A model generated the notes under the pieces. The model saw nothing but the letters and a program-made list of their open reading frames with translations, was not told the DNA's origin and made no database searches. From a virus, in the UHGV virus genome UHGV-0122456: 14,854 nucleotides of DNA; one strand, 5' to 3'. Every line of letters begins with the position of its first letter. The first letter of the stretch is position 1. A program made the translations under genes and the position numbers. Positions 1,774 to 14,854 of the stretch are shown here, one piece after another.

Positions 1774-1892
1774 AGTGCAGTATCTCCCGATTAAGGTTTG
1801 GTTTACGTCGTTTTATCTCGTTTTACTTGATTCAATATTTGATACATCTAGATACTACGATCCAATATTTGATACGTCAACAGGATTAAAAA
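1774..1892. promoter_or_regulatory. Lysis-lysogeny switch region (early/lytic and lysogenic promoters with operator repeats)
   Basis: Intergenic between divergent apl and cI. 13-bp direct repeat CAATATTTGATAC at 1833..1845 and 1863..1875 (30 bp apart), a third GATAC at 1851..1855, and tandem CGTTTTA-type repeats at 1809..1828. Confidence 0.5.
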
Positions 1893-2525
1893 ATGATACA
1901 GGTAAAGGCTGGAGAGAATACAGGGGGAAGAGAGGCTATCCATAGACTAATGGCAGCCTATGATTTCAAGTCCAGACAGCAACTTTGCGATCACTTAGGC
2001 GCATCAAAAAGTACCATGGCAAACAGATACTTAAGAGATAGTTTTCCTGCAGAGTGGGTGATTCAGTGCGCCTTGGAAACAGGAGTTTCTTTACTGTGGC
2101 TAACCACCGGACAGGGGGAGCCAGGTTCAAACATTGAACCCAAAAAAAATATCAATTCCGTGAACTCCAGCAAGGTTATACCTCTTTCTGAACTAGTATC
2201 TCCTGAAATTGACAAGGCGACTCTCAACGGTGGTTTATTGATCGATGCTGGAAAAGCAATCATTGATAGCAGCATACTCCCCTCAAACTCAAGCAACCTA
2301 CTGCTGGTGACTACTTCTGGTGATTCTTATTTAATAGATCGCAACCAAACACCACTAGTAAATGGTATGTGGTTAGTCGATATCGACGGGATAAAAAGCA
2401 TTGTTAAATTGACTCGACTCCCGGGAAACAAATTAGTAGTGCATCAGGATGATTCATCGTTTGAGTGCGGCCTGGATGACATTGAGGTAGTAGGCCGCGC
2501 ACTGAAAATCATTAAGAGCCTTTGA
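1893..2525 (+). CDS. cI: Immunity repressor CI (phage 186 CI family)
   Basis: 210 aa. N-terminal HTH region with NRY..........CALETG..L.WL.TG.GE and C-terminal GMWLVDIDG..SI..LTRLPG.KL......FECG.DDI..VGR match my recollection of 186 CI. Directly upstream of int, as in 186/P2. Confidence 0.85.
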   Translation: MIQVKAGENTGGREAIHRLMAAYDFKSRQQLCDHLGASKSTMANRYLRDSFPAEWVIQCALETGVSLLWLTTGQGEPGSNIEPKKNINSVNSSKVIPLSELVSPEIDKATLNGGLLIDAGKAIIDSSILPSNSSNLLLVTTSGDSYLIDRNQTPLVNGMWLVDIDGIKSIVKLTRLPGNKLVVHQDDSSFECGLDDIEVVGRALKIIKSL

Positions 2526-2526
2526 T

Positions 2527-3555
2527 ATGACCATCAGAAAACAGCCGAACGGAAAATGGTTGTGTGAGTGCTATCCCAATGGACGCAATGGCAAGCGCGT
2601 GCGTAAGCAATTTGCCACGAAAGGCGAAGCCATTGCGTTTGAAAGCTTCACAATGGAAGAAGTGAATAAAAAACCGTGGTTGGGTGAAAAGGATGATCGG
2701 CGACGCCTATCAGAGTTAATTGAGCTTTGGTATTCCCTGTATGGTCAGACACTCGCAGACCCCAAGCGCCTCATGGCGAAACTTAGAATTATCTGTAATG
2801 GTCTAGGCGACCCCATCGCCTCAGAACTGACAGCCGGAGACTTTACGAAATACCGCGAAGCACGGTTAAAAGGTGACCTTCGTAACGAAGACGGCACACT
2901 AATGTCGCCAGTAAAACCACGCACGGTGAATCTTGAGCAACGTAACCTATCATCGGTTTTCGGCACATTGAAAAAACTAGGCCACTGGTCAGCACCAAAT
3001 CCTCTCGTCGGGCTGCCAACATTTAAAATCGCTGAGGGTGAACTAGCATTCCTGACCCCGGAAGAAATTAAACGCCTACTGGATGCCTGTGCTGATTCTC
3101 AGAGTCCCAGTCTGTTGATGATTGCAAAAATATGCCTAGCAACTGGTGCCCGATGGAGTGAAGCAGAAAACCTGCAAGGGCATCAGTTATCAAAATATCG
3201 CATTACTTATACCAAGACCAAAGGTAAAAAAAACCGAACCGTTCCAATATCTCAAGAACTGTATGACGAACTACCTAAAAACAGGGGGAGATTATTTACC
3301 CCATGCAGAAAATCCTTTGAGCGTGCAGTAAAGCGAGCCGGTATCGAACTGCCAGAGGGCCAGTGCACCCACGTACTGCGCCATACATTCGCCAGCCATT
3401 TTATGATGAACGGCGGAAATATACTGGTACTGCGCGATATTCTGGGCCATGCTGATATAAAAATGACGATGGTTTACGCTCACTTTGCCCCTGATCACTT
3501 GGAAGATGCTGTAACAAAAAATCCACTTTACAAATTAGACTGGAAAAAAGCATGA
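2527..3555 (+). CDS. int: Tyrosine integrase (P2/186 Int family)
   Basis: 342 aa. C-terminal catalytic region TGARWSEA ... HVLRHTFASHFMMNGGNILVLRDILGH ... MVYAHFAP with Arg, His-x-x-Arg and Tyr closely resembles P2 Int. Lies next to the att core. Confidence 0.95.
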   Translation: MTIRKQPNGKWLCECYPNGRNGKRVRKQFATKGEAIAFESFTMEEVNKKPWLGEKDDRRRLSELIELWYSLYGQTLADPKRLMAKLRIICNGLGDPIASELTAGDFTKYREARLKGDLRNEDGTLMSPVKPRTVNLEQRNLSSVFGTLKKLGHWSAPNPLVGLPTFKIAEGELAFLTPEEIKRLLDACADSQSPSLLMIAKICLATGARWSEAENLQGHQLSKYRITYTKTKGKKNRTVPISQELYDELPKNRGRLFTPCRKSFERAVKRAGIELPEGQCTHVLRHTFASHFMMNGGNILVLRDILGHADIKMTMVYAHFAPDHLEDAVTKNPLYKLDWKKA

Positions 3556-4535
3556 CCCTTTATTCATCAATTGGCATTATGTTCTATGTTGTAATGTTAA
3601 TATACATATTGTATTTAACATATAAATACAAGTGGTATTTATTAAATGAACAAAACCTTATAAAACAGAAATTATTCTGGTTATCAATCGGAATACCAGT
3701 ATTATCATTCTTTTATTTTGGGATTTTCGCATGGTGGGGCAAGGTCCCGGTGTTAAGTGCCCACGGCTATACTCGCTTTTACGAAATCAGTAAATTCCCT
3801 CTAATGCTGCTAGCCAGTTCAGTACCTCTTGGAGCTATAGTTAAGAATATTCACAGGACCATTCAAACAGAGACGCAGCTTTCAAGGACAGAGCATCAAA
3901 TAGAGCTGGTAAAAGCAAAAAATAAATCTGATTCATTTTATGCCCACCAGAAGAGTTATGCCGATATTTTTAAAACTGTCCCTTCATTTATCGTTAGTAG
4001 AGAGTTTACCGAACACGATGATGGAAAAAAATATATAGAACCTTCCATTTCTCACCCTTATATTCTTTACATGAATATTTTTACAAAATCCTCTATTGAA
4101 GAAGGCTATAGCAAAGAAATAAGTTCATTATTTATGGGTAGAGTTCAAGATTATTATAAGAATATCAACAAAGCTATTAAAAGCTGTTACAACAAAGAGA
4201 CTTCTTATGATATCCAAGTGATTTCCCTTCAAATGCTCGAAATCAATATTATCCAACTTTGCAGAGAATTAGGGATCGACTATCGATATGAAAAACATGA
4301 GTTTATTCTTTTTGACTCCATTGAAGAAAAACCCTTCACCACTTCTTTCTCTGATGAAAAACAAATAAAGCAAATGGTCACTGGATTGCGCGAGCTGTTA
4401 GTTCATGTTTATATGCTGATTGGCTTAAGCCCTGAGGTCTTCCAAACGCCAAAAGGGCTATGGGACTTTATCCCTGACTATGGCAATGATTGCTCTAAGC
4501 TCTACCCAGCAATTCTACCTGCTGATAGGAATTAG
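3552..4535 (+). CDS. AT-rich cargo gene: membrane protein of unknown function (327 aa)
   Basis: ATG at 3552 overlaps the int stop as ATGA. Two to three N-terminal hydrophobic helices (about residues 7-24, 41-62, 82-97) followed by a roughly 230-aa K/E/Y/S-rich soluble domain. DNA is much more AT-rich than the flanking phage genes. No family recognised. Confidence 0.75.
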   Translation: MTLYSSIGIMFYVVMLIYILYLTYKYKWYLLNEQNLIKQKLFWLSIGIPVLSFFYFGIFAWWGKVPVLSAHGYTRFYEISKFPLMLLASSVPLGAIVKNIHRTIQTETQLSRTEHQIELVKAKNKSDSFYAHQKSYADIFKTVPSFIVSREFTEHDDGKKYIEPSISHPYILYMNIFTKSSIEEGYSKEISSLFMGRVQDYYKNINKAIKSCYNKETSYDIQVISLQMLEINIIQLCRELGIDYRYEKHEFILFDSIEEKPFTTSFSDEKQIKQMVTGLRELLVHVYMLIGLSPEVFQTPKGLWDFIPDYGNDCSKLYPAILPADRN

Positions 4536-4651
4536 CAATGGCGACAACTTGGCGGCAGAGCATTAAAAATGTGTAAAACCGACAAAAACAAAATAACACT
4601 AACGTACTGTTTTAAAACATAAATATATGTTTTTATTATAGTCAAAATGGT

Positions 4652-4696
4652 ATGTAGGAATTTCGGACGCGGGTTCAACTCCCGCCAGCTCCACCA
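4652..4696 (+). other. attP core: about 45-bp copy of the 3' end of the tmRNA gene ssrA (tRNA-like T-arm and acceptor CCA end); not a complete RNA gene
   Basis: ATGTAGGAATTTCGGACGCGGGTTCAACTCCCGCCAGCTCCACCA matches the 3' terminus of enterobacterial ssrA as I remember it. No ssrA 5' portion lies upstream; upstream is AT-rich phage DNA. Confidence 0.8.
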
Positions 4697-4706
4697 AATA
4701 AAACAA

Positions 4707-4739
4707 GGGGTTACGTGAAAGCGTAGCCCCTTTTTCTTT
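4707..4739 (+). terminator. Rho-independent terminator just 3' of the att core
   Basis: Stem GGGGTTACG (4707-4715) pairs with CGTAGCCCC (4722-4730), 9 bp with one G-U, loop TGAAAG, then TTTTTCTTT. An A-rich tract upstream makes it potentially bidirectional. Confidence 0.6.
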
Positions 4740-4819
4740 GGTAGTGGCGGCAAAATGGCGACAGGCTTTTGCGTCTTTCTTGCCTGTCGCCCTCTTGAAA
4801 TCATGCAAAGAGGTTTCAC

Positions 4820-5302
4820 ATGGAAGAACTTCACTTTGTTTACATCAATGCAAATGGTCGTATCGGAGTTCACTCAATACAGAGCATCAGTTATAGCGAA
4901 AATCATATACAGGGCATTTGTAAGAACACCGATCGAATAAAAACCTTCCGAAAAGACCGCATTCTTAAACAGTACGATTCACCAGAACAAGCCATTCAGG
5001 AATGCGCGTCATTCCTCCCCGAAAACTACTCACATCTCACTAAGCAGTCTGGTCCGAAAAAAAATACATTCGATGTGTGTTTCACCGGATTTAAGAAAGC
5101 AGATAAAGAAAGATTGGTTGATAAGGCGAATGAACAAGGATTAACGGTAAGAACCTCTGTAACCCAAAGCCTTCAGATGCTCTGTTGCGGTTACAATGCT
5201 GGCCCATCAAAAGTATCGGCAGCCAGGATGAAAGGCACAATCATCATAGATGAGCCTGGCTTTATACATTTTCTTGAAACGGGTGAGATCCCAGATGAAT
5301 AA
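4820..5302 (+). CDS. Small cargo protein with C-terminal BRCT-like domain (160 aa)
   Basis: RBS AAGAGG 7 nt before the ATG. C-terminal about 80 aa (DVCFTGF...RLV...GLTV..SV...L.CCGYNAGPSKVSAARMKGTIIIDEPGFIHFL) follows the pattern of the LigA C-terminal BRCT domain. N-terminal 60-aa domain unassigned. Confidence 0.7.
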   Translation: MEELHFVYINANGRIGVHSIQSISYSENHIQGICKNTDRIKTFRKDRILKQYDSPEQAIQECASFLPENYSHLTKQSGPKKNTFDVCFTGFKKADKERLVDKANEQGLTVRTSVTQSLQMLCCGYNAGPSKVSAARMKGTIIIDEPGFIHFLETGEIPDE

Positions 5303-5330
5303 AAACCTGCCGTAGCAGGTTCTCTTTCTC
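5303..5330. terminator. Bidirectional terminator between the convergent BRCT-like gene and ogr
   Basis: Hairpin ACCTGC-CGTA-GCAGGT (5305-5320), flanked by AAAAA upstream and TCTCTTTCTC downstream. Confidence 0.5.
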
Positions 5331-5547
5331 AAAAATTCATATGCCCCTGACCACCTGGCAATGGATGTGGAGGAGCAGTAGCAATCAGTGCGGGTGTCAC
5401 AATAAACCTGACCACTGTTTCATGGGTAACAAAAGTGCTCCCGCAGTTAATATTTTGGCACTGGCAGTAACGCTCTTTGGTGCTTTCAGTTACTTGAAAA
5501 CTGCTCCTTGTGTGTGCCGCATGACCACACTTTGGACAATTCATCAT
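5329..5547 (-). CDS. ogr: Ogr/B-type zinc-finger late-gene transcriptional activator
   Basis: MMNCPKCGHAAHTRSSF...YCQCQNINCGSTF has the Cys4 motif and about 72-aa length of P2 Ogr. I start it at the internal Met (5547 or 5544), not the 87-aa ORF start at 5592. Confidence 0.85.
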   Translation of the reverse strand: MMNCPKCGHAAHTRSSFQVTESTKERYCQCQNINCGSTFVTHETVVRFIVTPALIATAPPHPLPGGQGHMNF

Positions 5548-5615
5548 ATCCAGATCCCTACCTTTGCTATCAGAATCATTGTAATGATACACATAATATC
5601 AATATTGAGAACACT

Positions 5616-6716
5616 TTATTCCATTTCAAGATCATCAATCTTCACTTCGAGTTCAATACTGGTTGTAAAACCGTTATCCGGGCTGACGGTATGTGTCAGA
5701 GTCGTAATGGTCCATTCCGCATCATCTATCGGCTGTTTAAAACCACTGACTTTCACTGGCATTTCCGTGTAGAGATCTGCCCGACCTTCCGCCAGTTGTA
5801 GCGAGAATGACGCAACGCCGCGTTGCAGGCGTTCCCACTGCATTTTCGCCGCTCGTTCGGCGTTGCTCCGGTTGGCATAAGTGCGATTAAGTACCAGCAC
5901 GTTTTCATCCGTACCCACCAGGTAATCGCCCTGCTTCGCTTCCGTCTCTTTCTTCTGCTTCTTAGTCCTGCGCTTACGCTTCACCGTGGTGCTTTCTTTC
6001 TTCGAGGGTTCGCGAGTATGCAACCAGCTGGCAATTACGCCCGTGTAAGCTCCGCGATCTGCCAGGGTAAAGCGGTGACTGTCGCCGTCCTTACGTGTGA
6101 TAGTGATCACCGGTAGTGGTTTACCGCTGGCGCTTTTACCCTGTCCCTGTCGGATGAATAACAGATTGCCATTTTTCACCGACGCAATAGCACCGTACTG
6201 GCGCGCCAACCGCATCAGAAAACTGCCGTCACTCTCATTGGTCTGGTCTATATGTTCCACGGGTTTATCTGACAGGTCTTTACCCAATGTCATCTTCAGT
6301 TTGTGCCGCGCAGCTATTTCCTTCACCACTTCCCCAACGGTGGTCTTGTGCCACGACTTTTCACGGCGGGTATTCAGCGTTTCACGAAAATCAGCACTTC
6401 GCGCCCGGATAGTCAGGCGGTCCGGTGCGCCAGTGTGTTCAATCTCGTCCACCGTGAATGTCCCTTTCGGGAAAAGCGGCTGCCCCTTCCAGCCCAGCGC
6501 CAGCGTAATGACCGCACCACGGCGCGGCAGCACGATTTTTCCGTCGGCGTCGTCCAGCTCCAGATCAAGCTGGTCCGCGTCAAAGCCCCGATTGTCCGTC
6601 AACGTCAGACTCATCAGACGGTTATCCAGCACAGTAGTGATATCCCTGCCCTCAATACTGATGCTGAATGCGGGAGTTTTGTTGCCTTTGTTAAGCAGTT
6701 CAGAGCTGAAATTCAC
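5616..6716 (-). CDS. D: Tail protein D (late control gene D family)
   Basis: 366 aa, in the P2 gpD position between U and ogr. 4-bp overlap with U. Confidence 0.85.
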   Translation of the reverse strand: MNFSSELLNKGNKTPAFSISIEGRDITTVLDNRLMSLTLTDNRGFDADQLDLELDDADGKIVLPRRGAVITLALGWKGQPLFPKGTFTVDEIEHTGAPDRLTIRARSADFRETLNTRREKSWHKTTVGEVVKEIAARHKLKMTLGKDLSDKPVEHIDQTNESDGSFLMRLARQYGAIASVKNGNLLFIRQGQGKSASGKPLPVITITRKDGDSHRFTLADRGAYTGVIASWLHTREPSKKESTTVKRKRRTKKQKKETEAKQGDYLVGTDENVLVLNRTYANRSNAERAAKMQWERLQRGVASFSLQLAEGRADLYTEMPVKVSGFKQPIDDAEWTITTLTHTVSPDNGFTTSIELEVKIDDLEME

Positions 6717-7198
6717 GACAGCAGCCCTCCCACCGTTTTACTGATATCACTTAAGGCAGATGTTGCCGTGTCCTGCAGATTATTCAGTTGCGTACTGAGA
6801 TCACCGAACATATCGGACAGGGATTCATCCACCCGTTTGAGCGACAGGGTGAACTCAATCCGGCGCGGCATACCGTCGCGGAAAAACTCCGTTTTAGTCT
6901 GATTCAGTCCCTCAATCACATACATGCCGTAAATCGTGCCGCTGCCTTCAATCAGGGGCCATGCTTTTCCCTGTTCTGCCATCTGCTCCAGAGCCAGCAA
7001 CGACAGCCTGCCGCCCGTTACCTCCGGCATAAGAACACCAGAAAGCGTCAGCATGTCGTTGTCCGGTCCCAGAAACTGCGTTGACGGGCGTCGGTTTACC
7101 CGGCTGTTTGCCGCATGTCGCCAGCTGCGTTGATACTGCAGCTCCTGATACGGCACGGTGCGCAGCATAAACACGTACAATCCCAGCACCATCATCAT
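6713..7198 (-). CDS. U: Tail protein U
   Basis: 161 aa, matching the P2 gpU size and position. ATGA-type overlaps with T upstream and D downstream. Confidence 0.85.
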   Translation of the reverse strand: MMMVLGLYVFMLRTVPYQELQYQRSWRHAANSRVNRRPSTQFLGPDNDMLTLSGVLMPEVTGGRLSLLALEQMAEQGKAWPLIEGSGTIYGMYVIEGLNQTKTEFFRDGMPRRIEFTLSLKRVDESLSDMFGDLSTQLNNLQDTATSALSDISKTVGGLLS

Positions 7199-10100
7199 GC
7201 GTCGTATCCCCCCTGATCGCTGTAGTTACTCCTGGCTTTTGCCTTCAGCCTGCGTTCACGTTCATCAAGCTGGCGGGCCACCTCCCGCGCAATATCCTGC
7301 GCACTTTGTCCTGGCTGCGTCTGGATGATGATCTGCGTCGGTGCCTCAATCCTGTAAACAGGCGGCACAGTGGCTGCGCGACTCACAATTGCTTCTCCAC
7401 CTTTCGCGGGAAGTGCCAAAGGGTGCAACGGTGGAAGCTCTGCTGGCGCGGCAGCAACGCCCATCATTCCGGCAACAACGGTAGCCAGTGCAGCTGTATT
7501 TCTCCGGCTGGTCACGTTTGCCGGACCGTTAACAATTTCAGGCCCGTTTTCACCGACAATGCCGAACTGCCCGCGCGGGATATAGCCGCCGCTGTCATAC
7601 ATCCCCGCAAATCCATATCCCCATGACGGAAAACCACCCGATGGCATCATCACTTTACCGTCTGCATTCACCGTCGCAGGTTGCTGACGCGTCACACTTT
7701 CCGGCAGTTTCGCCTTTGCAGCCTCTTTACTGACAATGCCGAGCTTCTCCAGCAACCAGGAAACGCCGGATTTCAGGGAGTCCAGCGGATGCATGACCAT
7801 ATTCAGCCCTTCCGCCAGCGCCTCCCCGAATCGTCGCCCCATTGCCGCTGCGCTCTGCAGTTCGGCAGAGGTCGACTTAACGGGCGTCAGCAGATCAGTA
7901 AACCAGCCCCACAACGCCTGCACTTTGTCGCCAATCCACTGAAACACAGGCTTAAGTGGTTCGAATGCTGCACTGACGGGACCTGCCGCCGCTTTGAATC
8001 CTTCCACCACGCCACCGAGAAATGCGGTGATGGGTTGCCAGTATTTCCAGACAACCAGCGCCACACCCGCCAGTGCAGTAACCACAAGACCTATCGGACT
8101 AAGCAGAGCACCTAACAGACCAGATATGGCATACAGGGCAACGCGCAGCATCGCCAGCGGACCAGATGCAAGCACTCGCAGCACCGCGCCTGCGGCTGCC
8201 AGTCCACCGCGCAGTACCGCCAGAGGATTCATAAACATCACAGCAACAGCACGTAAACCGGATAATCCAGACCGCAAAAGTGCAACTGGCGCACCTGCTA
8301 CAGTTTTCAGGACATTTCCCGACAGTGATGCCGTGCGGCGCAAAGACGACAACGGCGCAGTAAGTAAACCTGCGGCGTTGCCCGATGAAGCAAGCCCGCG
8401 TCGCAGCAGTGCCAGTGGAGCGCCAGCTAACCAAGACAACGCTCTGCTGGTTCGTGTTACTGCTGCCGTAACGGAAGGTAACGTTTTGATACCCAGCACA
8501 GAGAATCCCAGACGGATGACTGCCAGCGGCCCCAGCACTGCAGCCAGCGCCACCGCTAAGGTGCCGAGGCCTACGGTAACCGCAGCCACAACAGCCGCTA
8601 CTTTCATCAGTGTGCCTGTCAGTTCCGGGTTAGCTTCCACCCAGCGGCGCAACGCCCCCGTGATGCTTTTCACCGTGTACAGAATATCCATCAGCGGCTG
8701 GCGCAGCGTTTCGCCCAGGCTGCTGAAGGTGTTCTGCGCTCCGGTTTTGACCAGCAACCACTGAGCAGAAAGTGAGTCTTTGTTGATGTCGGATTCTTTC
8801 TGCATGGAACCGAGCGCATCATTGCCCGCTGTCAGTTTTAGCTGGCGCTGCAGTTCCGGAAGGTTGTTTGCCAGTTTCGCCGCGTCATCACCAAACTCTT
8901 TACCAAACAACATGGTCATGGCAGACAGACGCTTGTCCTGCGGCAGTGCGTTCACCTTCTCCAGCACACGCTGGATAGTTCCCATCGCATCCTTCGTCAT
9001 CTGCTTTTCAATCACTTCAGGATTGAGTTTCAGCAGATTCATCCCTTCAAAGAAACTCTTGCTTTGCATGGTGGCAATGGACAATTCACGCACCATCGCG
9101 TTTGCTGCACTGGCTGCAACCTCCGGCGCAGCGCCCAGTGTCAGAAAGGTGGAACCCAGTGCCGCCGCTTTACGATAATCCAGACGGTCAGCCACACCGC
9201 CCAGACGTTGCATCACATCAATGATGTCCGCCCCTTTCGACATGGCGTTATCATCCAGATAGTTCAGCGCATCGCCGAGCTGTTCAATATTGCGGGTAGG
9301 TATTTTGTAGAGCTGGGCGATTTTCCCCAGACTTTCTGACAGTTCATCCGCTGGCAGCTCAAAGGCTGTTGCCGCCTTTGCTGCCGTACTGGCGAAGGCC
9401 AGCAGGTCACGTTTCTGGTCTTCCCAGCTGTCGTCAGGGTTTGCGACGTTCATGCGCGCACCACCTTCAACCAGTGCAGCGAAGTCCACCGCACCGTTTT
9501 CCATCGGCAACTGTTCGCTGGCAGCCTTGATGGCATCCTGCATTTCATAAAAACGTGCAGTGCGGTTGCCATTATCGTCACGCAGACCATTGACCTGCTT
9601 TGCCACGCCTTTCATGGCATCTTCCATGCTGGTATAGCTTTTTACTGCCGCCATCACTGGCGCACCCATTGCCAGCCCTGCAGCCGTGGTAGTGGCTCCG
9701 GCTCCTGCGATGCGATCGCGCACTTCAAGCCGTCTTGAGTATTGATCCCTGACAGCGTTCATCCGTGCCTGTTGTTCACCCAGACGTTTAAGTGCTTTTT
9801 GCTGGCCCTCCAGTGCCTGCCTTGTTTCTTCAGCATTTTTCTTAAGTTCTCGCTGGGCACTACTGAGTTGTCTGGTATCAATCCCTGATTCTTTAAGTGC
9901 CTGACGTTGTCTCTGGACCGCCCCCAACAAGCCGTTATAGGTCTGCTGAAGTTCCTGTACTCGTGTTTTGGCCTGACTGAATAACTTTGCCTGCGCGGCG
10001 GTTGGCCTGTTAGTGGCAGCAAATTGTGTGGCGAGTTTTGCCGCCTCTTCGCGGGCTGCGTTCAGGTTGTTGGCTGTTATGGCTAGTTGCGAGCGCGTCT

Positions 10101-10272
10101 TGCGAAATTCATCAATTCTGCCAGCCTGCTTATTCAGTTCTTTGAGACTGTTTCGGGTATTCTGAATTGCGCCAGCCAGCTCTTTCGAACTGGCCTGTGC
10201 AGCACGGAATGGGCGGGTAAGTTTGTCAACCGCATTAAGAATGACCTGCAGCCGCAGGTTGTTATCACTCAT
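7195..10272 (-). CDS. T: Tail tape measure protein
   Basis: 1025 aa. Coiled-coil-like N-terminal half, central Ala/Leu/Gly-rich repeated hydrophobic block, position between E/E' and U. Confidence 0.9.
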   Translation of the reverse strand: MSDNNLRLQVILNAVDKLTRPFRAAQASSKELAGAIQNTRNSLKELNKQAGRIDEFRKTRSQLAITANNLNAAREEAAKLATQFAATNRPTAAQAKLFSQAKTRVQELQQTYNGLLGAVQRQRQALKESGIDTRQLSSAQRELKKNAEETRQALEGQQKALKRLGEQQARMNAVRDQYSRRLEVRDRIAGAGATTTAAGLAMGAPVMAAVKSYTSMEDAMKGVAKQVNGLRDDNGNRTARFYEMQDAIKAASEQLPMENGAVDFAALVEGGARMNVANPDDSWEDQKRDLLAFASTAAKAATAFELPADELSESLGKIAQLYKIPTRNIEQLGDALNYLDDNAMSKGADIIDVMQRLGGVADRLDYRKAAALGSTFLTLGAAPEVAASAANAMVRELSIATMQSKSFFEGMNLLKLNPEVIEKQMTKDAMGTIQRVLEKVNALPQDKRLSAMTMLFGKEFGDDAAKLANNLPELQRQLKLTAGNDALGSMQKESDINKDSLSAQWLLVKTGAQNTFSSLGETLRQPLMDILYTVKSITGALRRWVEANPELTGTLMKVAAVVAAVTVGLGTLAVALAAVLGPLAVIRLGFSVLGIKTLPSVTAAVTRTSRALSWLAGAPLALLRRGLASSGNAAGLLTAPLSSLRRTASLSGNVLKTVAGAPVALLRSGLSGLRAVAVMFMNPLAVLRGGLAAAGAVLRVLASGPLAMLRVALYAISGLLGALLSPIGLVVTALAGVALVVWKYWQPITAFLGGVVEGFKAAAGPVSAAFEPLKPVFQWIGDKVQALWGWFTDLLTPVKSTSAELQSAAAMGRRFGEALAEGLNMVMHPLDSLKSGVSWLLEKLGIVSKEAAKAKLPESVTRQQPATVNADGKVMMPSGGFPSWGYGFAGMYDSGGYIPRGQFGIVGENGPEIVNGPANVTSRRNTAALATVVAGMMGVAAAPAELPPLHPLALPAKGGEAIVSRAATVPPVYRIEAPTQIIIQTQPGQSAQDIAREVARQLDERERRLKAKARSNYSDQGGYDA

Positions 10273-10701
10273 CGTTGGCCCCGCTTCTCTGAATCGCTTT
10301 ATACCGCCATTCCAGCACTTCGGTCAGCGGCATAACGTCAGTAACGGATGGCGGCCAGTGAAAGATGGTGGCGATATCTGCCACCAGATCGTCAACCGTC
10401 AGGCTGTCGGTAAACCGGCAAGCACCGACTTCTTCAACAAAAAAGTGACAACCTCAACCGACATGGCAGTGAGATCTGCCGGGTCCATCTCTGCAATTTC
10501 CTGTGCAGTCAGTGCCGGACTGGAAATGCGGGGGATCACGGTCATCATCGCGTTCACATCCATATCCATAATGGCCTGCAGGCGTGTACCGCGCAGCGCA
10601 CCGGACTGCGGTTTACGCAGCACAATTTCGGTGATTTCCGTTTTACCGCGCTTGATGGGGGTATCCAGTTGAATGGTCTTTTCAGTCTGCTTATCGCTCA
10701 T
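10265..10701 (-). CDS. E+E' tail assembly chaperone made by programmed -1 frameshift (about 145 aa)
   Basis: - strand T TTT TTG (complement of 10438..10444) lies in the E 0-frame as ..ACT TTT TTG... The -1 frame is open for 57 codons (VEEVGACRFTDSL...RSGANDE) to TGA at 10267..10265, overlapping the T start. Confidence 0.7.
10399..10701 (-). CDS. E: Tail assembly chaperone E (0-frame product)
   Basis: 100 aa, immediately upstream of T. Contains the slippery heptamer near its 3' end. Confidence 0.85.
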   Translation of the reverse strand: MSDKQTEKTIQLDTPIKRGKTEITEIVLRKPQSGALRGTRLQAIMDMDVNAMMTVIPRISSPALTAQEIAEMDPADLTAMSVEVVTFLLKKSVLAGLPTA

Positions 10702-10755
10702 TTTGCTGTCCTTTAAATTGGGTTCTGGCGCGGTATCCCGCGCCGTTCAGATAGA

Positions 10756-11271
10756 TCAGAGGCCGAGTGCGTTGCGGTGTGCTTCCATCAGGTCCACACC
10801 ATCCACAATTTCCACCATGTTGATAAGGTCCACTTCATAGAGCACCTCACCATTGATGGTCAGCTTCGCGTAGCTGTTGGTACTGGTCACTTTGGTGGTG
10901 TTGCTTTCGCCCGTCTTCCACTCGCCGGAATCCACTTCTTTGTGACGTCCACGCACCACAAGCTCCACAGCCTGCACTTCCCCGGTATCGTCACGCTGGA
11001 TAGAGCCGGTAAAGCGCAGCTGGATGCCATCCACAGTGGCTTTGCCCATCTGCTTAAACAGCAGCAGTTCAGTACCACCAATGGAAAATTCTGTGTCCAG
11101 CGCACTGTCATCAAGCCCCAGATCCACATCTACTGCACCCGGCATTCCGCCGCCGCGATACTTCTCATATTTGCGGGTGAATTTCGGCAGCGTCAGCGAC
11201 TCTACGATCCCCTGCCAGTTGTTCCCGTCGTTAAACAGGTTCAGATGTTTTAATTTGCGTGGTAAAGCCAT
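10756..11271 (-). CDS. FII: Major tail tube protein FII
   Basis: 171 aa, matching P2 FII in size and in position between FI and E. Confidence 0.9.
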   Translation of the reverse strand: MALPRKLKHLNLFNDGNNWQGIVESLTLPKFTRKYEKYRGGGMPGAVDVDLGLDDSALDTEFSIGGTELLLFKQMGKATVDGIQLRFTGSIQRDDTGEVQAVELVVRGRHKEVDSGEWKTGESNTTKVTSTNSYAKLTINGEVLYEVDLINMVEIVDGVDLMEAHRNALGL

Positions 11272-11280
11272 GTTGTCCCC

Positions 11281-12453
11281 TTACGCGCTGACCTGGCTGG
11301 CAAAATTCACCAGGTACTGATCGGTGATGCGCTGGCGCAGCATCAGATTTTCAAGTGGCGGCACTGGCGTGTAGTCATAGTCGATGGTGAGTTTTCCGGC
11401 TTTCAGCGTGTCTTTATCGTTCACCGACTCATCCAGCCAGCAATCACCACCAATGAGATAGCCCTGACTGACCAGGCTGCGCATTTTGGCGCGGATACCT
11501 TCGATAATGTCGCGGGCCAGCGACGGGTTAAGAGGTTTATCCACCGCCCACATGTGTGCTTCTGCAATCGTGTCCATCAGCACCTGCGCCGTGCGGGTGT
11601 AGTTTTCGAAGGCAAAGAGCGGGTCATCACTCAAGCAGCGGGAACCCCAGAAGCGGAAACCGTCTTTACGCACAAGCGTGGTGACGTCGTTCTGGTTCAG
11701 CAGACCTGCATCAGTTGCCGGGTCCTGCAGATCCCAGAACACATCAGCAGAAATTCCGGTGACACCGTTCACGCCCACGTTGGACAGGCTTTTGTGCCAT
11801 CCAGTCTGCTCATCAATTTTGGCGCGCAGACCAAGCGCACGGGCGGTGGCATATGCCGTTGCTTCGGCATTCAGTACCGTGTCCCAGCCAGTAAAGTCAG
11901 GCCAGATCAGCATCCCTTCGCGCTGGCTGAAGTTTTCACGGTAAGTGATCGCCTCCTGTATCGTCTTGCAGCCATACGCTGACAGGTAAGCAAACCCACG
12001 CAGGCTTTGCGCCACGCTCAGCAACTCAGTAGCTACCGCCTTGGTGTCGTGACCAGGTACACCCAGAATGCGTGGTTTAACGCCGAGCTGTGAATGAGCA
12101 GATAACAGGGCTTTCATGCCAGTTTTTTTACCTTCAGCGGTCACTGCGCCGATGATATTGGTCGTGGTTTCTTCTTCCGTTTCACCCTGCGGCACACGCA
12201 CAACAACGGTCACGGGTTTTGCCTGGTCAGCGATGGCATCCAGCGAACGGGCCAGAGTACCGGACTCACCCGCTTTACCGCTGGCAGTCAGCACATCAGT
12301 GATCAGCACGGGTTTATTAAGAGGAAACATTTTTGCATCGGCATCATCGCCCGTGCAGACCATACCCACGATGGCGGTGCTCACCGTGGTAATGGATCGG
12401 GTGCCTTCGTTGACTTCAACAACGCGCACCCCGTGGTGGTAATCCTGAGCCAT
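11281..12453 (-). CDS. FI: Contractile tail sheath protein FI
   Basis: 390 aa, matching P2 FI in size and position as first gene of the FI-FII-E-T-U-D operon. Confidence 0.9.
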
Positions 12454-12595: not shown

Positions 12596-13168
12596 TCAGG
12601 GGGATTCATTGATCTTATTTGCCGGAAATTTTCTATAAATGGTAGAAACGCCTACATCAAAAATCAGTGCAATACGCTGTCTTGATTCTCCGGCCTCGAG
12701 TAAACGCCCAATCTGTGCCCACTGTTCGGTGGTCAACTTAGGACGGCGTCCACCTACTCTGCCTTTGGCACGAGCTGCAGCCAGCCCTGCCCTAGTACGT
12801 TCAACTATCAGTTCGCGCTCCATTTCAGCCAGGGCACCCATGACATGAAAAAAGAAACGGCCCATTGGGGTACTGGTATCAATACTGTCAGTCAGGCTTC
12901 TGAAATTCACACCACGCTGGCGTAACTCTTCTATCAGCGTAACAAGATGCCGCATACTGCGCCCCACCCTGTCCAGCTTCCAGACAACCAGCGTGCCTCC
13001 TGCCGATAGTGTCCTGAGCAGTTTTTTCAGCCCCGGTCTGTCGGACTTAGTGCCGCTGATTTTATCCTCAAAAATCCGCTCACATCCCGCGCAGTTCAGC
13101 GCACTACGTTGCAAATCGGTGTTCTGGTCATTTGTTGACACGCGTACATAGCCAATAAGCATGATCAT
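12596..13168 (-). CDS. Serine DNA invertase (Hin/Gin/Cin/Pin family)
   Basis: 190 aa. N-terminal catalytic region LIGYVRVSTNDQNTDLQR, then LVVWKLDRVGRSMRHL, C-terminal HTH; closely resembles my recollection of E. coli Pin. True start may be the Met at 13162. Confidence 0.9.
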   Translation of the reverse strand: MIMLIGYVRVSTNDQNTDLQRSALNCAGCERIFEDKISGTKSDRPGLKKLLRTLSAGGTLVVWKLDRVGRSMRHLVTLIEELRQRGVNFRSLTDSIDTSTPMGRFFFHVMGALAEMERELIVERTRAGLAAARAKGRVGGRRPKLTTEQWAQIGRLLEAGESRQRIALIFDVGVSTIYRKFPANKINESP

Positions 13169-13189
13169 CTCCTTGAATAAAAATCGGGG

Positions 13190-13684
13190 ATGATGCCAGT
13201 TAGTCGTAATCGCTGCATTTTCTTAAACGTTGGTTTGGGAGAAGCGGCAAAACGGAATGTGGGCAACGGGGAAAACCAAATCCCTGATATGTCTTTCTGG
13301 ACGGTTACTGGTGGCAATGGAAATTTTGTGATTCGTCAACCTGACGGGCTAATCATTCAGATGGTTACTGTAAGTATAAGCGGTCCAGTGGCGATGAATG
13401 GAATGACTGATAATGCTTATGCCATTACAGGTTCTAATAAGTCTTATATTGCCACAGCCACATTGCCCTTTGTATTTCCTAATAAGGTACTGGGCGTTAT
13501 CCCTCTGGTATCAACAACAGCTTATGGTGGTGTATCCAGTAATATTACAGGTTCATACGCGACGGCGGTTTGTTCTTTTGCCGCTGTCAGGGGGAATAAT
13601 ACGATTGTGTTCAAAGTCGACAAACCACTGAATGCAGCCTTTCCTTCAGATACCAGCGTCTCAGCGTTAATCATTGGACGGTAA
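13190..13684 (+). CDS. Alternative tail-fibre C-terminal cassette (Sv'-like), expressed only after inversion
   Basis: Open frame with no convincing independent start that crosses the crossover site in frame. Gly/Thr/Ser/Asn-rich like fibre tips. Followed 3 bp later by a tail fibre assembly gene. Confidence 0.55.
   Translation: MMPVSRNRCIFLNVGLGEAAKRNVGNGENQIPDMSFWTVTGGNGNFVIRQPDGLIIQMVTVSISGPVAMNGMTDNAYAITGSNKSYIATATLPFVFPNKVLGVIPLVSTTAYGGVSSNITGSYATAVCSFAAVRGNNTIVFKVDKPLNAAFPSDTSVSALIIGR
13218..13243. other. Candidate invertase crossover site (gix/hix-like), left boundary of the invertible segment
   Basis: TTTTCTTAAACG-TT-GGTTTGGGAGAA: two imperfect inverted 12-bp half-sites around a TT core, resembling hixL TTCTTGAAAACC-AA-GGTTTTTGATAA. 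About 50 bp upstream of the invertase start and inside the fibre cassette frame. Confidence 0.5.
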
Positions 13685-13686
13685 GA

Positions 13687-14130
13687 ATGAACTCAGTATT
13701 CTTTTCACCCGCAAGTAAAAGTTTTTATCTGCAAGAATTGTTTCCAGAATATGAGGATGCGGGAACGCTTCCTGATGATGTTATTGAAATTACCAGAGAA
13801 ACATATGAGCAATTTCTTGGGCTGCATCCAGAAGGGAAAGAAATTGGCGCTGACAGTTCAGGATGGCCAATATGGATTAATTCCCCGCCGCCTTCAAAAG
13901 AGGATGAGATGCTGGCGGCTGAAATGAAAAAGATATCTTTGGTTTCAGAAGTCAATACCTACATCAATACCCATCAGTGGCCTGGCAAAGCTGCTATTGG
14001 TCGTCTGAAAGGTTACGAGCTGGAACAATATAATTTATGGCTGGATTATCTGGACGCACTGGAACTGGTTGATACCTCCAGTGCTCCAGATATTGAATGG
14101 CCTACGCCTCCGGTAGTTCAGGCCAGATGA
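13687..14130 (+). CDS. Tail fibre assembly protein (alternative, U'-like)
   Basis: 147 aa. C-terminal LWLDYLDALELVDTSSAPDIEWPTPP parallels the C-terminus of the convergent gene (LDYIDAVTATDTSTAPDVIWPELP), the conserved tail fibre assembly motif. Confidence 0.85.
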   Translation: MNSVFFSPASKSFYLQELFPEYEDAGTLPDDVIEITRETYEQFLGLHPEGKEIGADSSGWPIWINSPPPSKEDEMLAAEMKKISLVSEVNTYINTHQWPGKAAIGRLKGYELEQYNLWLDYLDALELVDTSSAPDIEWPTPPVVQAR

Positions 14131-14707
14131 CATCCGGCGCGGTACTGGTATCTGTTGCAGTCACCGCGTCAATGTAATCCAGCACAGCGTTAAGCCGGGT
14201 TGTTTCTGCCTGCGTCAGCTTCCGCCCGGCCTGCAATTTCAGCTGAATCAGACTAATGGAAGCCATAGCAGCATCAATCAGTGACTGGCGCCGTACTTCT
14301 GCCGCGTCTACTGCGGCGTTATGCTGTGCCTCAGTATCGGTCACCCATTTCTCACCATCCCATTTATCGTATGACGTTAACGGGGCGATAGTGGTTGTAT
14401 TTTCAGGGTAATCACCCGGAGCGGTGATTTCTTTTGATTCTCCTGTTTTGGTGCTATAGACCGTTTCACCGCGATGGTCTGGCACATATTCCCATGAGTT
14501 AAAATCTGCAGAACGGCAAATTGCATAACCAGCTTTATATGAGCCAGGAGCATCTAAACAGGAACATGCCGGGATACCGACACCCACAGCAAGATATTCA
14601 GTTGATGTGGAAATATATTCCCGTGTTTCACCATCATAATTATAAACGGTAATGTCTCCGGCCTTTGTGGCGATGAGTTCATTATTTAATACAGCTTTAC
14701 TTATCAT
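14102..14707 (-). CDS. Tail fibre assembly protein (U/G-like)
   Basis: 201 aa with the conserved C-terminal motif. Its ATG overlaps the stop of the upstream fibre gene as ATGA. Confidence 0.85.
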   Translation of the reverse strand: MISKAVLNNELIATKAGDITVYNYDGETREYISTSTEYLAVGVGIPACSCLDAPGSYKAGYAICRSADFNSWEYVPDHRGETVYSTKTGESKEITAPGDYPENTTTIAPLTSYDKWDGEKWVTDTEAQHNAAVDAAEVRRQSLIDAAMASISLIQLKLQAGRKLTQAETTRLNAVLDYIDAVTATDTSTAPDVIWPELPEA

Positions 14708-14854
14708 GCAGCCCTCACAATATAATTAAAGGCGATGTTACGGGAGCGGGTTTCAGATGCTGTGCGAACTGAGCGAGATGCGTCGAATGTCCAGTTATAA
14801 GCGCCATAACCCTCAATAATTTCGGCTTCCTTTAGACCTGTAGATAATACTTGC
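14704..14854 (-). CDS. Tail fibre protein, C-terminal end of the variable part (3' partial; gene begins beyond the window end)
   Basis: - strand frame open from the window edge: ...QVLSTGLKEAEIIEGYGAYNWTFDASRSVRTASETRSRNIAFNYIVRAA, stop TGA at 14706..14704 overlapping the assembly gene ATG. Confidence 0.6.
   Translation of the reverse strand, partial: QVLSTGLKEAEIIEGYGAYNWTFDASRSVRTASETRSRNIAFNYIVRAA

Follow-up and report, generated by a model that had tools for sequence, protein, structure and literature searches.

The region between positions 2527 and 5547 of the window (the whole stretch of 14,854 nucleotides analyzed in this study, which is an entire metagenome contig, ENA ERZ783489 NODE_545, with a coverage of 3.07) reads as the ordinary attP of a Fels-2/Cartapus-type phage of the P2 family that inserts into ssrA. 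We assign it to a temperate member of the Peduoviridae with a 186-like switch, and the window is probably free phage DNA. An attP arrangement in the unintegrated form is already well known, and the significance beyond annotation is small; recognition of the contig as phage DNA in phage order helps to classify it and to set prophage boundaries at ssrA and gives a hint of phage activity (excised or packaged) in that sample.

Phage genes and the ssrA-derived core

The tyrosine integrase gene int (2527 to 3555, plus strand; Pfam Int_N, 8e-29, and Phage_integrase, 1.4e-24) encodes a protein that is 92% identical to the Int of Fels-2 over 341 amino acids, with the motifs ATGARWSE, HVLRHTF, LGH, and MVYAH in the alignment. 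The gene for a 186-type CI repressor (1893 to 2525, plus strand; Pfam Phage_CI_repr, 5.2e-31, and Phage_CI_C, 3.7e-28) is the first in a co-directional cI-int array. The open reading frame at 1531 to 1773 on the minus strand occupies the position of apl in Fels-2 and in Yersinia phage MLG42 and matches excisionase and Cox-like PHROGs (phrog_6912, 4.1e-39; phrog_575, Cox-like, 5.2e-28); its product, an apl/cox-type excisionase/repressor (recombination directionality factor), is likely to be the excision factor. The zinc-finger late-gene activator gene ogr lies on the minus strand at 5329 to 5547 (Pfam Ogr_Delta, 1.5e-20; NCBIfam PRK09678, 9.7e-33). Its open reading frame spans 5329 to 5592; the 72-residue form at 5329 to 5547 matches positions 1 to 70 of the 72 in PRK09678, and the gene is annotated with 219 nucleotides in relatives. 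The late tail operon starts with gpD (5616 to 6716, minus strand; Pfam Phage_GPD), followed by U, T, E, FII, and FI, which reach position 12453 and include a match to Pfam Phage_P2_GpU. The resulting order, FI-FII-E-T-U-D-ogr-att-int-cI-apl-cII, is that of the P2 family, and Pfam or PHROG matches were obtained for CI, CII (CP76), GPD, GpU, tape measure, tube, and sheath proteins. The window ends on the right with an invertase segment, for which no inverted repeats were found within the window.

The stop codons of int and ogr are 1.77 kb apart with the core between them, in agreement with the original prediction that the two genes flank an ssrA-derived core within 2 kb. The core adjoins the integrase gene at a distance of 1.1 kb from its stop codon, with one cargo gene in between; int and the gene for a 327-residue cargo protein lie to its left, and the gene for a 160-residue cargo protein and ogr lie to its right. 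As had also been stated for the unintegrated form, the two cargo genes (3552 to 4535 and 4820 to 5302) are neighbors on the plus strand, and the attachment site is located in the 284 bp that separate them. Gene calls gave zero host genes within the window. Phage DNA stands on both sides of the core, the two sides match opposite prophage ends, and the contiguous int-core-ogr order is that of a phage genome, which argues for an attP arrangement, as proposed, rather than a prophage end with host DNA beside the core.

The core (4652 to 4700, plus strand) is present in one copy in the window. It consists of ATGTAGGAATTTCGGACGCGGGTTCAACTCCCGCCAGCTCCACCA at 4652 to 4696, which is the predicted copy of the ssrA 3′ end and matches perfectly the final 45 nucleotides of the annotated E. 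coli ssrA of strains 33-6 and TST3, and of AATA at 4697 to 4700, which is also common to attL and attR of strain 33-6. The 5′ portion of ssrA is absent, as claimed: ARAGORN detected no tmRNA gene in the window, a search of the window for the E. coli ssrA 5′ sequence gave no match with up to three mismatches allowed, and the 5′ acceptor/tRNA-like half, the tag frame, and the pseudoknots of a complete ssrA were not found in it. The Rfam tmRNA model scores 33.3 bits against the window, compared with a gathering score of 47, and aligns convincingly at the 3′ end alone, with 103 unrelated bases in place of 288 model positions. A complete ssrA just upstream of 4652, which would speak against the proposed arrangement, is thus lacking in the window. 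A hidden or permuted tmRNA was likewise rejected, given the negative ARAGORN result and scores of 33 bits (tmRNA) and 23 bits (permuted) against a gathering score of 47. An inverted repeat of the tmRNA T arm (GCGGG and CCCGC around TTCAACT; 4669 to 4685, plus strand) was read from the sequence together with the Rfam structure line. It falls inside the crossover interval described below (4652 to 4689) and is a candidate for the core-type Int sites around a 7-nucleotide overlap, which we place here provisionally.

Arm sites, recombination products, and related systems

The sequence TGGCGRCA occurs nine times in the window, compared with 1.43 copies expected from shuffles, and four of the nine flank the core as two pairs with 11-bp spacing, one per arm. 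The P-arm pair lies at 4539 to 4557 (plus strand; TGGCGACA at 4539 to 4546 and TGGCGGCA at 4550 to 4557), and the P′-arm pair lies at 4745 to 4763 (plus strand; TGGCGGCA at 4745 to 4752 and TGGCGACA at 4756 to 4763). These repeats are conserved in Cartapus, MLG42, and SEN8, and their reverse complement, TGCCGCCA, fits the arm-site consensus of 186-type integrases, tgccGCCActt (PMC3448106). They are putative arm-type Int sites, as would be expected in the attP of a heterobivalent tyrosine integrase, and together with the core they delimit the attP cleanly to about 230 nucleotides. A terminator scan identified an intrinsic-terminator hairpin with a U-run at 4705 to 4732 on the plus strand (RNA fold of −19.8 kcal/mol, z = −4.5). 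The hairpin is conserved in relatives and stands directly behind ssrA in attL, and it is predicted to become the terminator of the rebuilt ssrA upon integration. In the search for IHF sites, the sole match to WATCAANNNNTTR has one mismatch (4701 to 4713) and overlaps the terminator stem. GTTTTA is enriched, which offers no more than a lead toward binding sites of the directionality factor in the attP.

Bacterial genomes identify the core as the site of recombination. In contigs as well as in closed E. coli chromosomes, the left arm and the core stand at the right ends of prophages, in the order int-cargo 1-core-host or island DNA (attR), and match the window with 99.9% identity up to 4696 to 4700. 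The core and the right arm stand directly behind the 5′ part of the host ssrA, in the order smpB-ssrA-cargo 2-ogr-D (attL), and match the window with up to 99.97% identity immediately after ssrA, which is intact in attL, the phage arm beginning after it. The right arm is present at a coverage of 80% or more in at least 169 genomes. A joint alignment of three sequences, the window plus the attL and the attR of 33-6, places the core in the host attB as well, and the parting of the two cargo genes to opposite prophage ends, which had been anticipated, is directly visible in this strain. In strain 33-6, attL and attR lie about 23 kb apart, compared with about 34 kb in TST3. Exact matches to the core with the expected flanks were found in five sequences (L001, L004, L005, L006, and L011). 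At the attR junctions of L006, L011, and L002, phage sequence continues through 4689, after which the junctions diverge, so that the crossover lies inside the core and, as read from these variants, strand exchange must take place left of 4690. L006 and L011 are integrated copies of the same phage in other samples, and the sister contig L008 stops 1 nucleotide past the core; the phage thus also circulates in integrated form in related samples. No closed genome of the collection contains both halves of the window at 99.9% identity or more, and the best closed-genome matches come from different strains for each half (33-6 or LR-25 for the left, TST3 for the right). The locus H35 (strain CAVP773) was rejected as an attP junction; it is a deleted prophage remnant in which D is fused to cII. 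Elements commonly form arrays at ssrA.

By analogy with P2 and 186, Int would bind the TGGCGRCA pairs of the P and P′ arms plus the core and would swap strands within 4652 to 4689 with the identical end of the host ssrA. The attL product would consist of the 5′ part of the host ssrA, the core, the phage terminator hairpin, cargo 2, ogr, and D, with ssrA intact, and the attR product would consist of cI, int, cargo 1, the core, and host or island DNA; both orders are seen in related genomes. The Apl/Cox-type protein encoded at 1531 to 1773 would drive excision.

Fels-2 and SopEPhi are reported as ssrA integrators in PMC3448106, which cites Pelludat 2003. The phage in this study shares with both the ssrA 3′ end as the target, and with Fels-2 the closely similar Int, an apl-cI-int order that has int upstream of the attachment site, and 186-type arm repeats. 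The annotated halves of the Fels-2 attP align to the P arm and core of the window; they are split across the ends of the record because it uses prophage coordinates. The window differs from Fels-2 in that the gene for the 327-residue cargo protein separates int from the P arm and a BRCT gene separates the P′ arm from ogr; Salmonella phage SEN8, which like Fels-2 is a Felsduovirus, is without both. MLG42 and SEN8 have the same contiguous int-core-ogr order. Cartapus (LF82 prophage 4; Peduoviridae, Elveevirus; OV696611) has a cos-delimited genome that is collinear with the window in the identical order cI-int-cargo-core-BRCT gene-ogr-D-U-T and an attP region that is 90.8% identical over 294 nucleotides, whereas the gene in its int-att slot encodes a 401-residue RES-domain protein, not the 327-residue membrane protein, and it covers 66% of window positions 2400 to 5700 at 90% identity. 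Similar to the attP of 186 and P2, the core is located between pairs of direct arm repeats, the att site is flanked by the late activator/D side and by int, and an Apl/Cox-type excision factor is encoded, but the target and the core sequence are different; the attachment sites of 186 are ileY/ileX, and those of P2 are non-tRNA sites (PMC3448106). As described for tRNA/tmRNA islands in PMC4383910 (Islander), the element bears the 3′ part of its target and a displaced fragment marks the far end, and the target gene is regenerated because the element carries its 3′ part. The element in the window is a complete phage and not a non-phage island, which is no difference in principle.

Source of the contiguous junction

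Since int, core, and ogr are contiguous, without host DNA or the 5′ part of ssrA, the window is in unintegrated order. The original prediction of this order holds; its list of sources (a free phage genome, an excised episome, or a tandem junction) was incomplete, as it omitted a low-coverage mis-join through the 49-nucleotide repeat. The contig is unbroken through the core, and the likeliest source is therefore phage DNA in free form, whether packaged in virions, replicating, or excised, in excess over integrated copies in this sample. The same int-core-ogr junction is found in two other assemblies with 99.94 to 99.98% identity, one of which is a Logan contig that runs straight through the core; the Logan assembly was presumably built with k = 31, which is shorter than the core. 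The three assemblies with the junction represent two pipelines, with one or two substitutions each relative to the window and the same combination of halves. An exact-pattern scan for the attP junction returned zero species-representative genomes and one IMG/VR contig, an independent sequence of the Cartapus type that carries the same junction; this outcome fits free phage DNA and a tandem junction alike. In culture, Cartapus undergoes spontaneous induction, excising and producing virions (PMC9928086).

A tandem dilysogen, in which two head-to-tail P2-like prophages at ssrA bring int-cargo 1-core against cargo 2-ogr-D, is an unlikely source. Such junctions exist: in strain 503440, an attP-like junction at 2,474,630 lies 36 kb from an attL-side copy at 2,438,797, the closed chromosomes of 503440 and ET734 share the layout early genes-int-cargo-core-cargo 2-ogr-D, and the frequent occurrence of element arrays at ssrA also fits. 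However, the full junction is present in 2 of 5,426 closed E. coli genomes, compared with at least 169 with the attL arrangement, and the assembly graph of a dilysogen should branch at the core, the P arm leading to both the P′ arm and host DNA and the P′ arm being entered from both ssrA and cargo 1; the window and the Logan contig appear to pass through the core unbranched. We also regard as improbable an assembly artifact in which attR reads of a single prophage were joined to its attL reads via the shared 38- to 49-nucleotide core because competing branches were lost at low coverage. The contig coverage of 3.07 is compatible with such a join, as are the best closed-genome halves from different strains (33-6/LR-25 versus TST3) and the end of some sister contigs, such as L008, at the core; the 49-nucleotide core also exceeds the small k of a multi-k assembly and the presumed k of 31 of Logan. 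On the other hand, the identical combination of halves recurs in the three assemblies from two pipelines, each with its one or two substitutions, and the junction in the Cartapus-type contig is independent of them; the final k, which we take to be the metaSPAdes default of 55, is larger than the repeat. No observation favors the view that the resemblance to ssrA is relictual or fortuitous, with integration elsewhere, and its probability is negligible: an exact identity over 45 nucleotides is beyond chance, the prophage boundaries of many genomes coincide with the stretch, and the annotated Fels-2 attP aligns at it. This reading, and with it the earlier proviso that the core might not be the recombination site, is refuted by the comparisons of attL and attR.

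Cargo genes beside the attachment site

The cargo genes are uncharacterized morons at a location already recognized as a hotspot; a recent study (PMC13586616) identified the int-att slot of P2-like phages as a minor defense hotspot, and the two slots abut the attP, one per side. Cargo 1 (3552 to 4535, plus strand) encodes an AT-rich predicted membrane protein of 327 residues; the start codon of the gene and the stop codon of int overlap as ATGA. Cargo 2 (4820 to 5302, plus strand; Pfam BRCT, 1.1e-3) encodes a 160-residue protein in which an N-terminal β-barrel, perhaps WYL-like in the predicted model, is followed by a C-terminal BRCT domain of the RFC1/LigA type; profile matches were to the BRCT domains of RFC1 and LigA. 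The AlphaFold model has a mean pLDDT of 91.7, and BRCT domains lead its Foldseek matches, among which PafBC ranks 24th. The protein is 99% identical to CARTA_32 of Cartapus, and among the matches listed, its gene stands behind smpB-ssrA in 8 of 10 places. In PADLOC-DB v2, cargo 1 matched no defense-system model, and cargo 2 had no full-length match, aligning to the C-terminal 70 positions of the candidate PDC-S48 at the level of the BRCT domain (1.8e-7). Both proteins are reasonable, unproven candidates for anti-phage or conversion functions expressed in the lysogen.

It is conceivable, though doubtful, that the attachment site acts as a switch for moron expression, the cargo genes being rewired upon integration. 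Crossing over at the core would set the WYL-like/BRCT gene behind the very strongly transcribed ssrA, 123 nucleotides downstream of it, with the phage hairpin alone intervening. A promoter scan found no sigma-70-like promoter between the hairpin and the start codon of cargo 2, and cargo 2 might therefore be expressed by terminator read-through, in the integrated state only. Cargo 1 would keep its place at the end of the lysogenic cI-int operon, with translational coupling. In lysogens, the Cartapus homolog is expressed 15-fold above the prophage background (PMC9928086), which is compatible with such a switch but does not show it.

The idea that cargo 1 and cargo 2 form a dedicated pair assembled solely on the circular form was judged unlikely, given that the int-side partners of cargo 2 vary. 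The partner is the RES protein in Cartapus and L020, another hypothetical gene in 503440, and a hypothetical gene with an HNH gene in ET734. In TST3 and MLG42, cargo 2 is present and the int end is without a cargo gene, and the exact cargo 2 protein is far more widespread than cargo 1.

Gene order around the ssrA-derived core

According to the ORF listing and family searches, the genes of the window are collinear with a P2-family segment carrying a 186-like switch. Genes for DUF5347 (226-567, -), CII (CP76; 989-1498, -), and an Apl/Cox-type excisionase (1531-1773, -) precede those for CI (1893-2525, +) and a tyrosine integrase (int; 2527-3555, +), the product of which is 92% identical to the Fels-2 Int. 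The int stop codon is overlapped by the ATG of a 327-aa ORF (cargo1; 3552-4535, +), and a 284-nt gap (4536-4819) separates cargo1 from a 160-aa ORF (cargo2; 4820-5302, +). These are followed by ogr (5329-5547, -), the genes D, U, T, E, FII, and FI (5616-12453, -), and DNA invertase and tail-fibre assembly genes on both strands (12596-14707). In the annotation that accompanies the ENA and Logan contigs, ogr is missing and an antisense 143-aa ORF (5341-5772, +) takes its place, which looks like a gene-calling artefact.

The original prediction, that int and ogr bracket a 45-nt copy of the ssrA 3' end within 2 kb and that no ssrA 5' portion is present, agrees with the analysis at each point. The int and ogr stops (3555 and 5329) lie 1.77 kb apart, and the core at 4652-4696, the only copy in the window, is of the predicted position and length and matches the terminal 45 nt of the annotated E. 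coli ssrA base for base. Identity among the window and both prophage ends of strain 33-6 (attL, directly after host ssrA, and attR, on the int side) extends four bases more, to 4700. ARAGORN found no tmRNA gene in the window, the Rfam tmRNA model scored 33.3 bits (gathering score 47) and truly aligned at the 3' end only, and the E. coli ssrA 5' sequence had no match in the window at ≤3 mismatches.

The gene order of the window, cI-int-cargo-core-BRCT gene-ogr-D-U-T, is also that of the cos-delimited Cartapus phage genome. Cartapus is prophage 4 of strain LF82, for which spontaneous excision and virion formation have been shown (PMC9928086). Yersinia phage MLG42 and Salmonella phage SEN8 share this order, but ogr is unannotated in both records and a short hypothetical ORF replaces the BRCT gene in SEN8. 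The arrangement of the window is thus the normal phage-genome arrangement, which supports the predicted unintegrated attP over a prophage end. This attP is of the standard kind and belongs to an already known ssrA-targeting P2-family lineage.

Recombination site and anatomy of attP

Comparison with integrated copies identifies the core as the recombination site, as had been proposed. Window positions 2400-4700 occur at 99.9% identity in closed E. coli chromosomes, where the match ends at 4696-4700 and gives way to host or island DNA, whereas positions 4697-5700 are found at up to 99.9% identity directly 3' of an intact 363-nt ssrA beside smpB. Of the 10 places shown for the exact cargo2 protein, 8 have smpB-ssrA ahead of it. 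The distance from ssrA to int is ~34 kb in E. coli TST3, and the two prophage ends of strain 33-6, the prophage of which carries a deletion, are ~23 kb apart. At three attR junctions (loci L006, L011, and L002), where the phage used a degenerate secondary core that derives from another island, the phage core is kept to 4689 and diverges beyond; strand exchange therefore falls within 4652-4689. The tmRNA T-arm inverted repeat (4669-4685), inside this interval, is a plausible candidate for a core-type site.

Four TGGCGRCA octamers form two direct pairs with 11-bp spacing, at 4539/4550 in the P arm and 4745/4756 in the P' arm; the window holds nine copies against 1.43 expected from shuffles. Both pairs are kept in Cartapus, MLG42, and SEN8, while the spacers between the pairs drift. 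Read in reverse complement, as TGCCGCCA, the repeats agree with tgccGCCActt, the arm-site consensus of 186 type reported for P2-like phages (PMC3448106). The cargo1 stop codon lies 4 nt from the first arm site and the cargo2 start ~57 nt from the last conserved one, so that the two genes abut an attP of ~230 nt, one on each side. A strong hairpin with a U-run (4705-4732; -19.8 kcal/mol, z = -4.5) is located 3' of the core; since it directly follows ssrA in attL, the terminator of the rebuilt ssrA is phage-supplied.

Of the 18 GTTTTA hexamers in the window, six (at 1810-1825 and 4574-4704) are located in the cI/apl switch region and attP, jointly 414 nt, and may be sites for Apl (excisionase/repressor); AT-richness may account for part of the enrichment. 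The P arm also has a sigma-70-like promoter match (4611-4639, +; TTTAAA-17-TATTAT, 9/12, a consensus match only) directed into the core, which after integration would face out of the prophage into DNA past attR.

Source of the junction

The window is the entire contig NODE_545_length_14854_cov_3.07 of ENA assembly ERZ783489, and the same phage is found, at 99.94-100% identity, on contigs of other assemblies. The attP junction recurs in ERZ783475 NODE_1491 and Logan SRR650261_3979, the latter presumably assembled with k=31. In ERZ27276036 and ERZ784261, attR lies beside a P4-type integrase island, and the SRR653134 contig group ends one base past the core.

The junction probably derives from free or excised phage DNA. 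A tandem dilysogen would have an identical local layout, and such dilysogens exist but are rare: among 5,426 closed genomes, only two (503440 and ET734) have a full-length junction, and at least 169 have the attL arrangement. A tandem or mixed population should branch the assembly graph at the core, yet the window and the Logan contig run straight through; unintegrated phage DNA is therefore inferred to have been the dominant form in those samples. A tandem source is unlikely, and so, to a similar degree, is an assembly mis-join at the contig coverage of 3x.

Cargo slots and neighbouring elements

Cargo1 is AT-rich (GC 0.30-0.38) with helices predicted at the N-terminus, and searches found no family, defence-model, or fold assignment for it. 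Its slot between int and att is variable: Cartapus and locus L020 have a RES protein, ET734 has an uncharacterised gene and an HNH gene, and MLG42 and SEN8 have none. A published study (PMC13586616) already describes the integrase-att region of P2-like prophages as a minor defence hotspot. Cargo2 is modelled confidently as two domains (mean pLDDT 91.7), with a C-terminal RFC1/LigA-type BRCT domain and an N-terminal β-barrel that is possibly WYL-like, judging from a weak PafBC match. It is 99% identical to CARTA_32, the only gene annotated 'putative exonuclease' in the Cartapus record; a Cartapus gene so annotated is listed as a moron with expression 15-fold over prophage background in LF82 lysogens (PMC9928086). 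Cargo1 and cargo2 are both taken to be morons, and the analysis assigned a function to neither; integration might place cargo2 under ssrA read-through.

In E. coli CAVP773 (L002), a prophage remnant (1810-10410) has a truncated cII fused to D. On one flank of it, upstream of the BRCT gene, lies a retron Ec67 reverse transcriptase, and on the other, beside int, an anti-phage dCTP deaminase; the remnant exemplifies the collection of defence genes in both of the slots next to att. The ssrA locus is occupied by arrays of elements (L006 11101-12537; L001 5465-6694; L024 and L027 upstream of 6001), the phage attR adjoins a P4-type integrase island via a degenerate core copy (..CCAGCACCACTT), and in some genomes a type I secretion/BapA island, not smpB-ssrA, precedes cargo2-ogr.

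At the far end of the window, a Gin/Hin-type DNA invertase (12596-13168, -) adjoins a tail-fibre C-terminal fragment (13190-13684, +), beyond which are two opposed tail-fibre assembly genes (13687-14130, +; 14102-14707, -). The region 12596-14854 looks like an invertible host-range segment comparable to CARTA_19-23 of Cartapus; no inverted repeat for it was found within the window, and the contig ends 147 nt past the assembly genes. In TST3 (L016, 13016-31660), the ssrA prophage is interrupted by three IS630-family element copies, which enclose genes of colanic-acid and O-antigen type (wcaM fragment, galF, gndA, and ugd) in the phage portal/terminase region.
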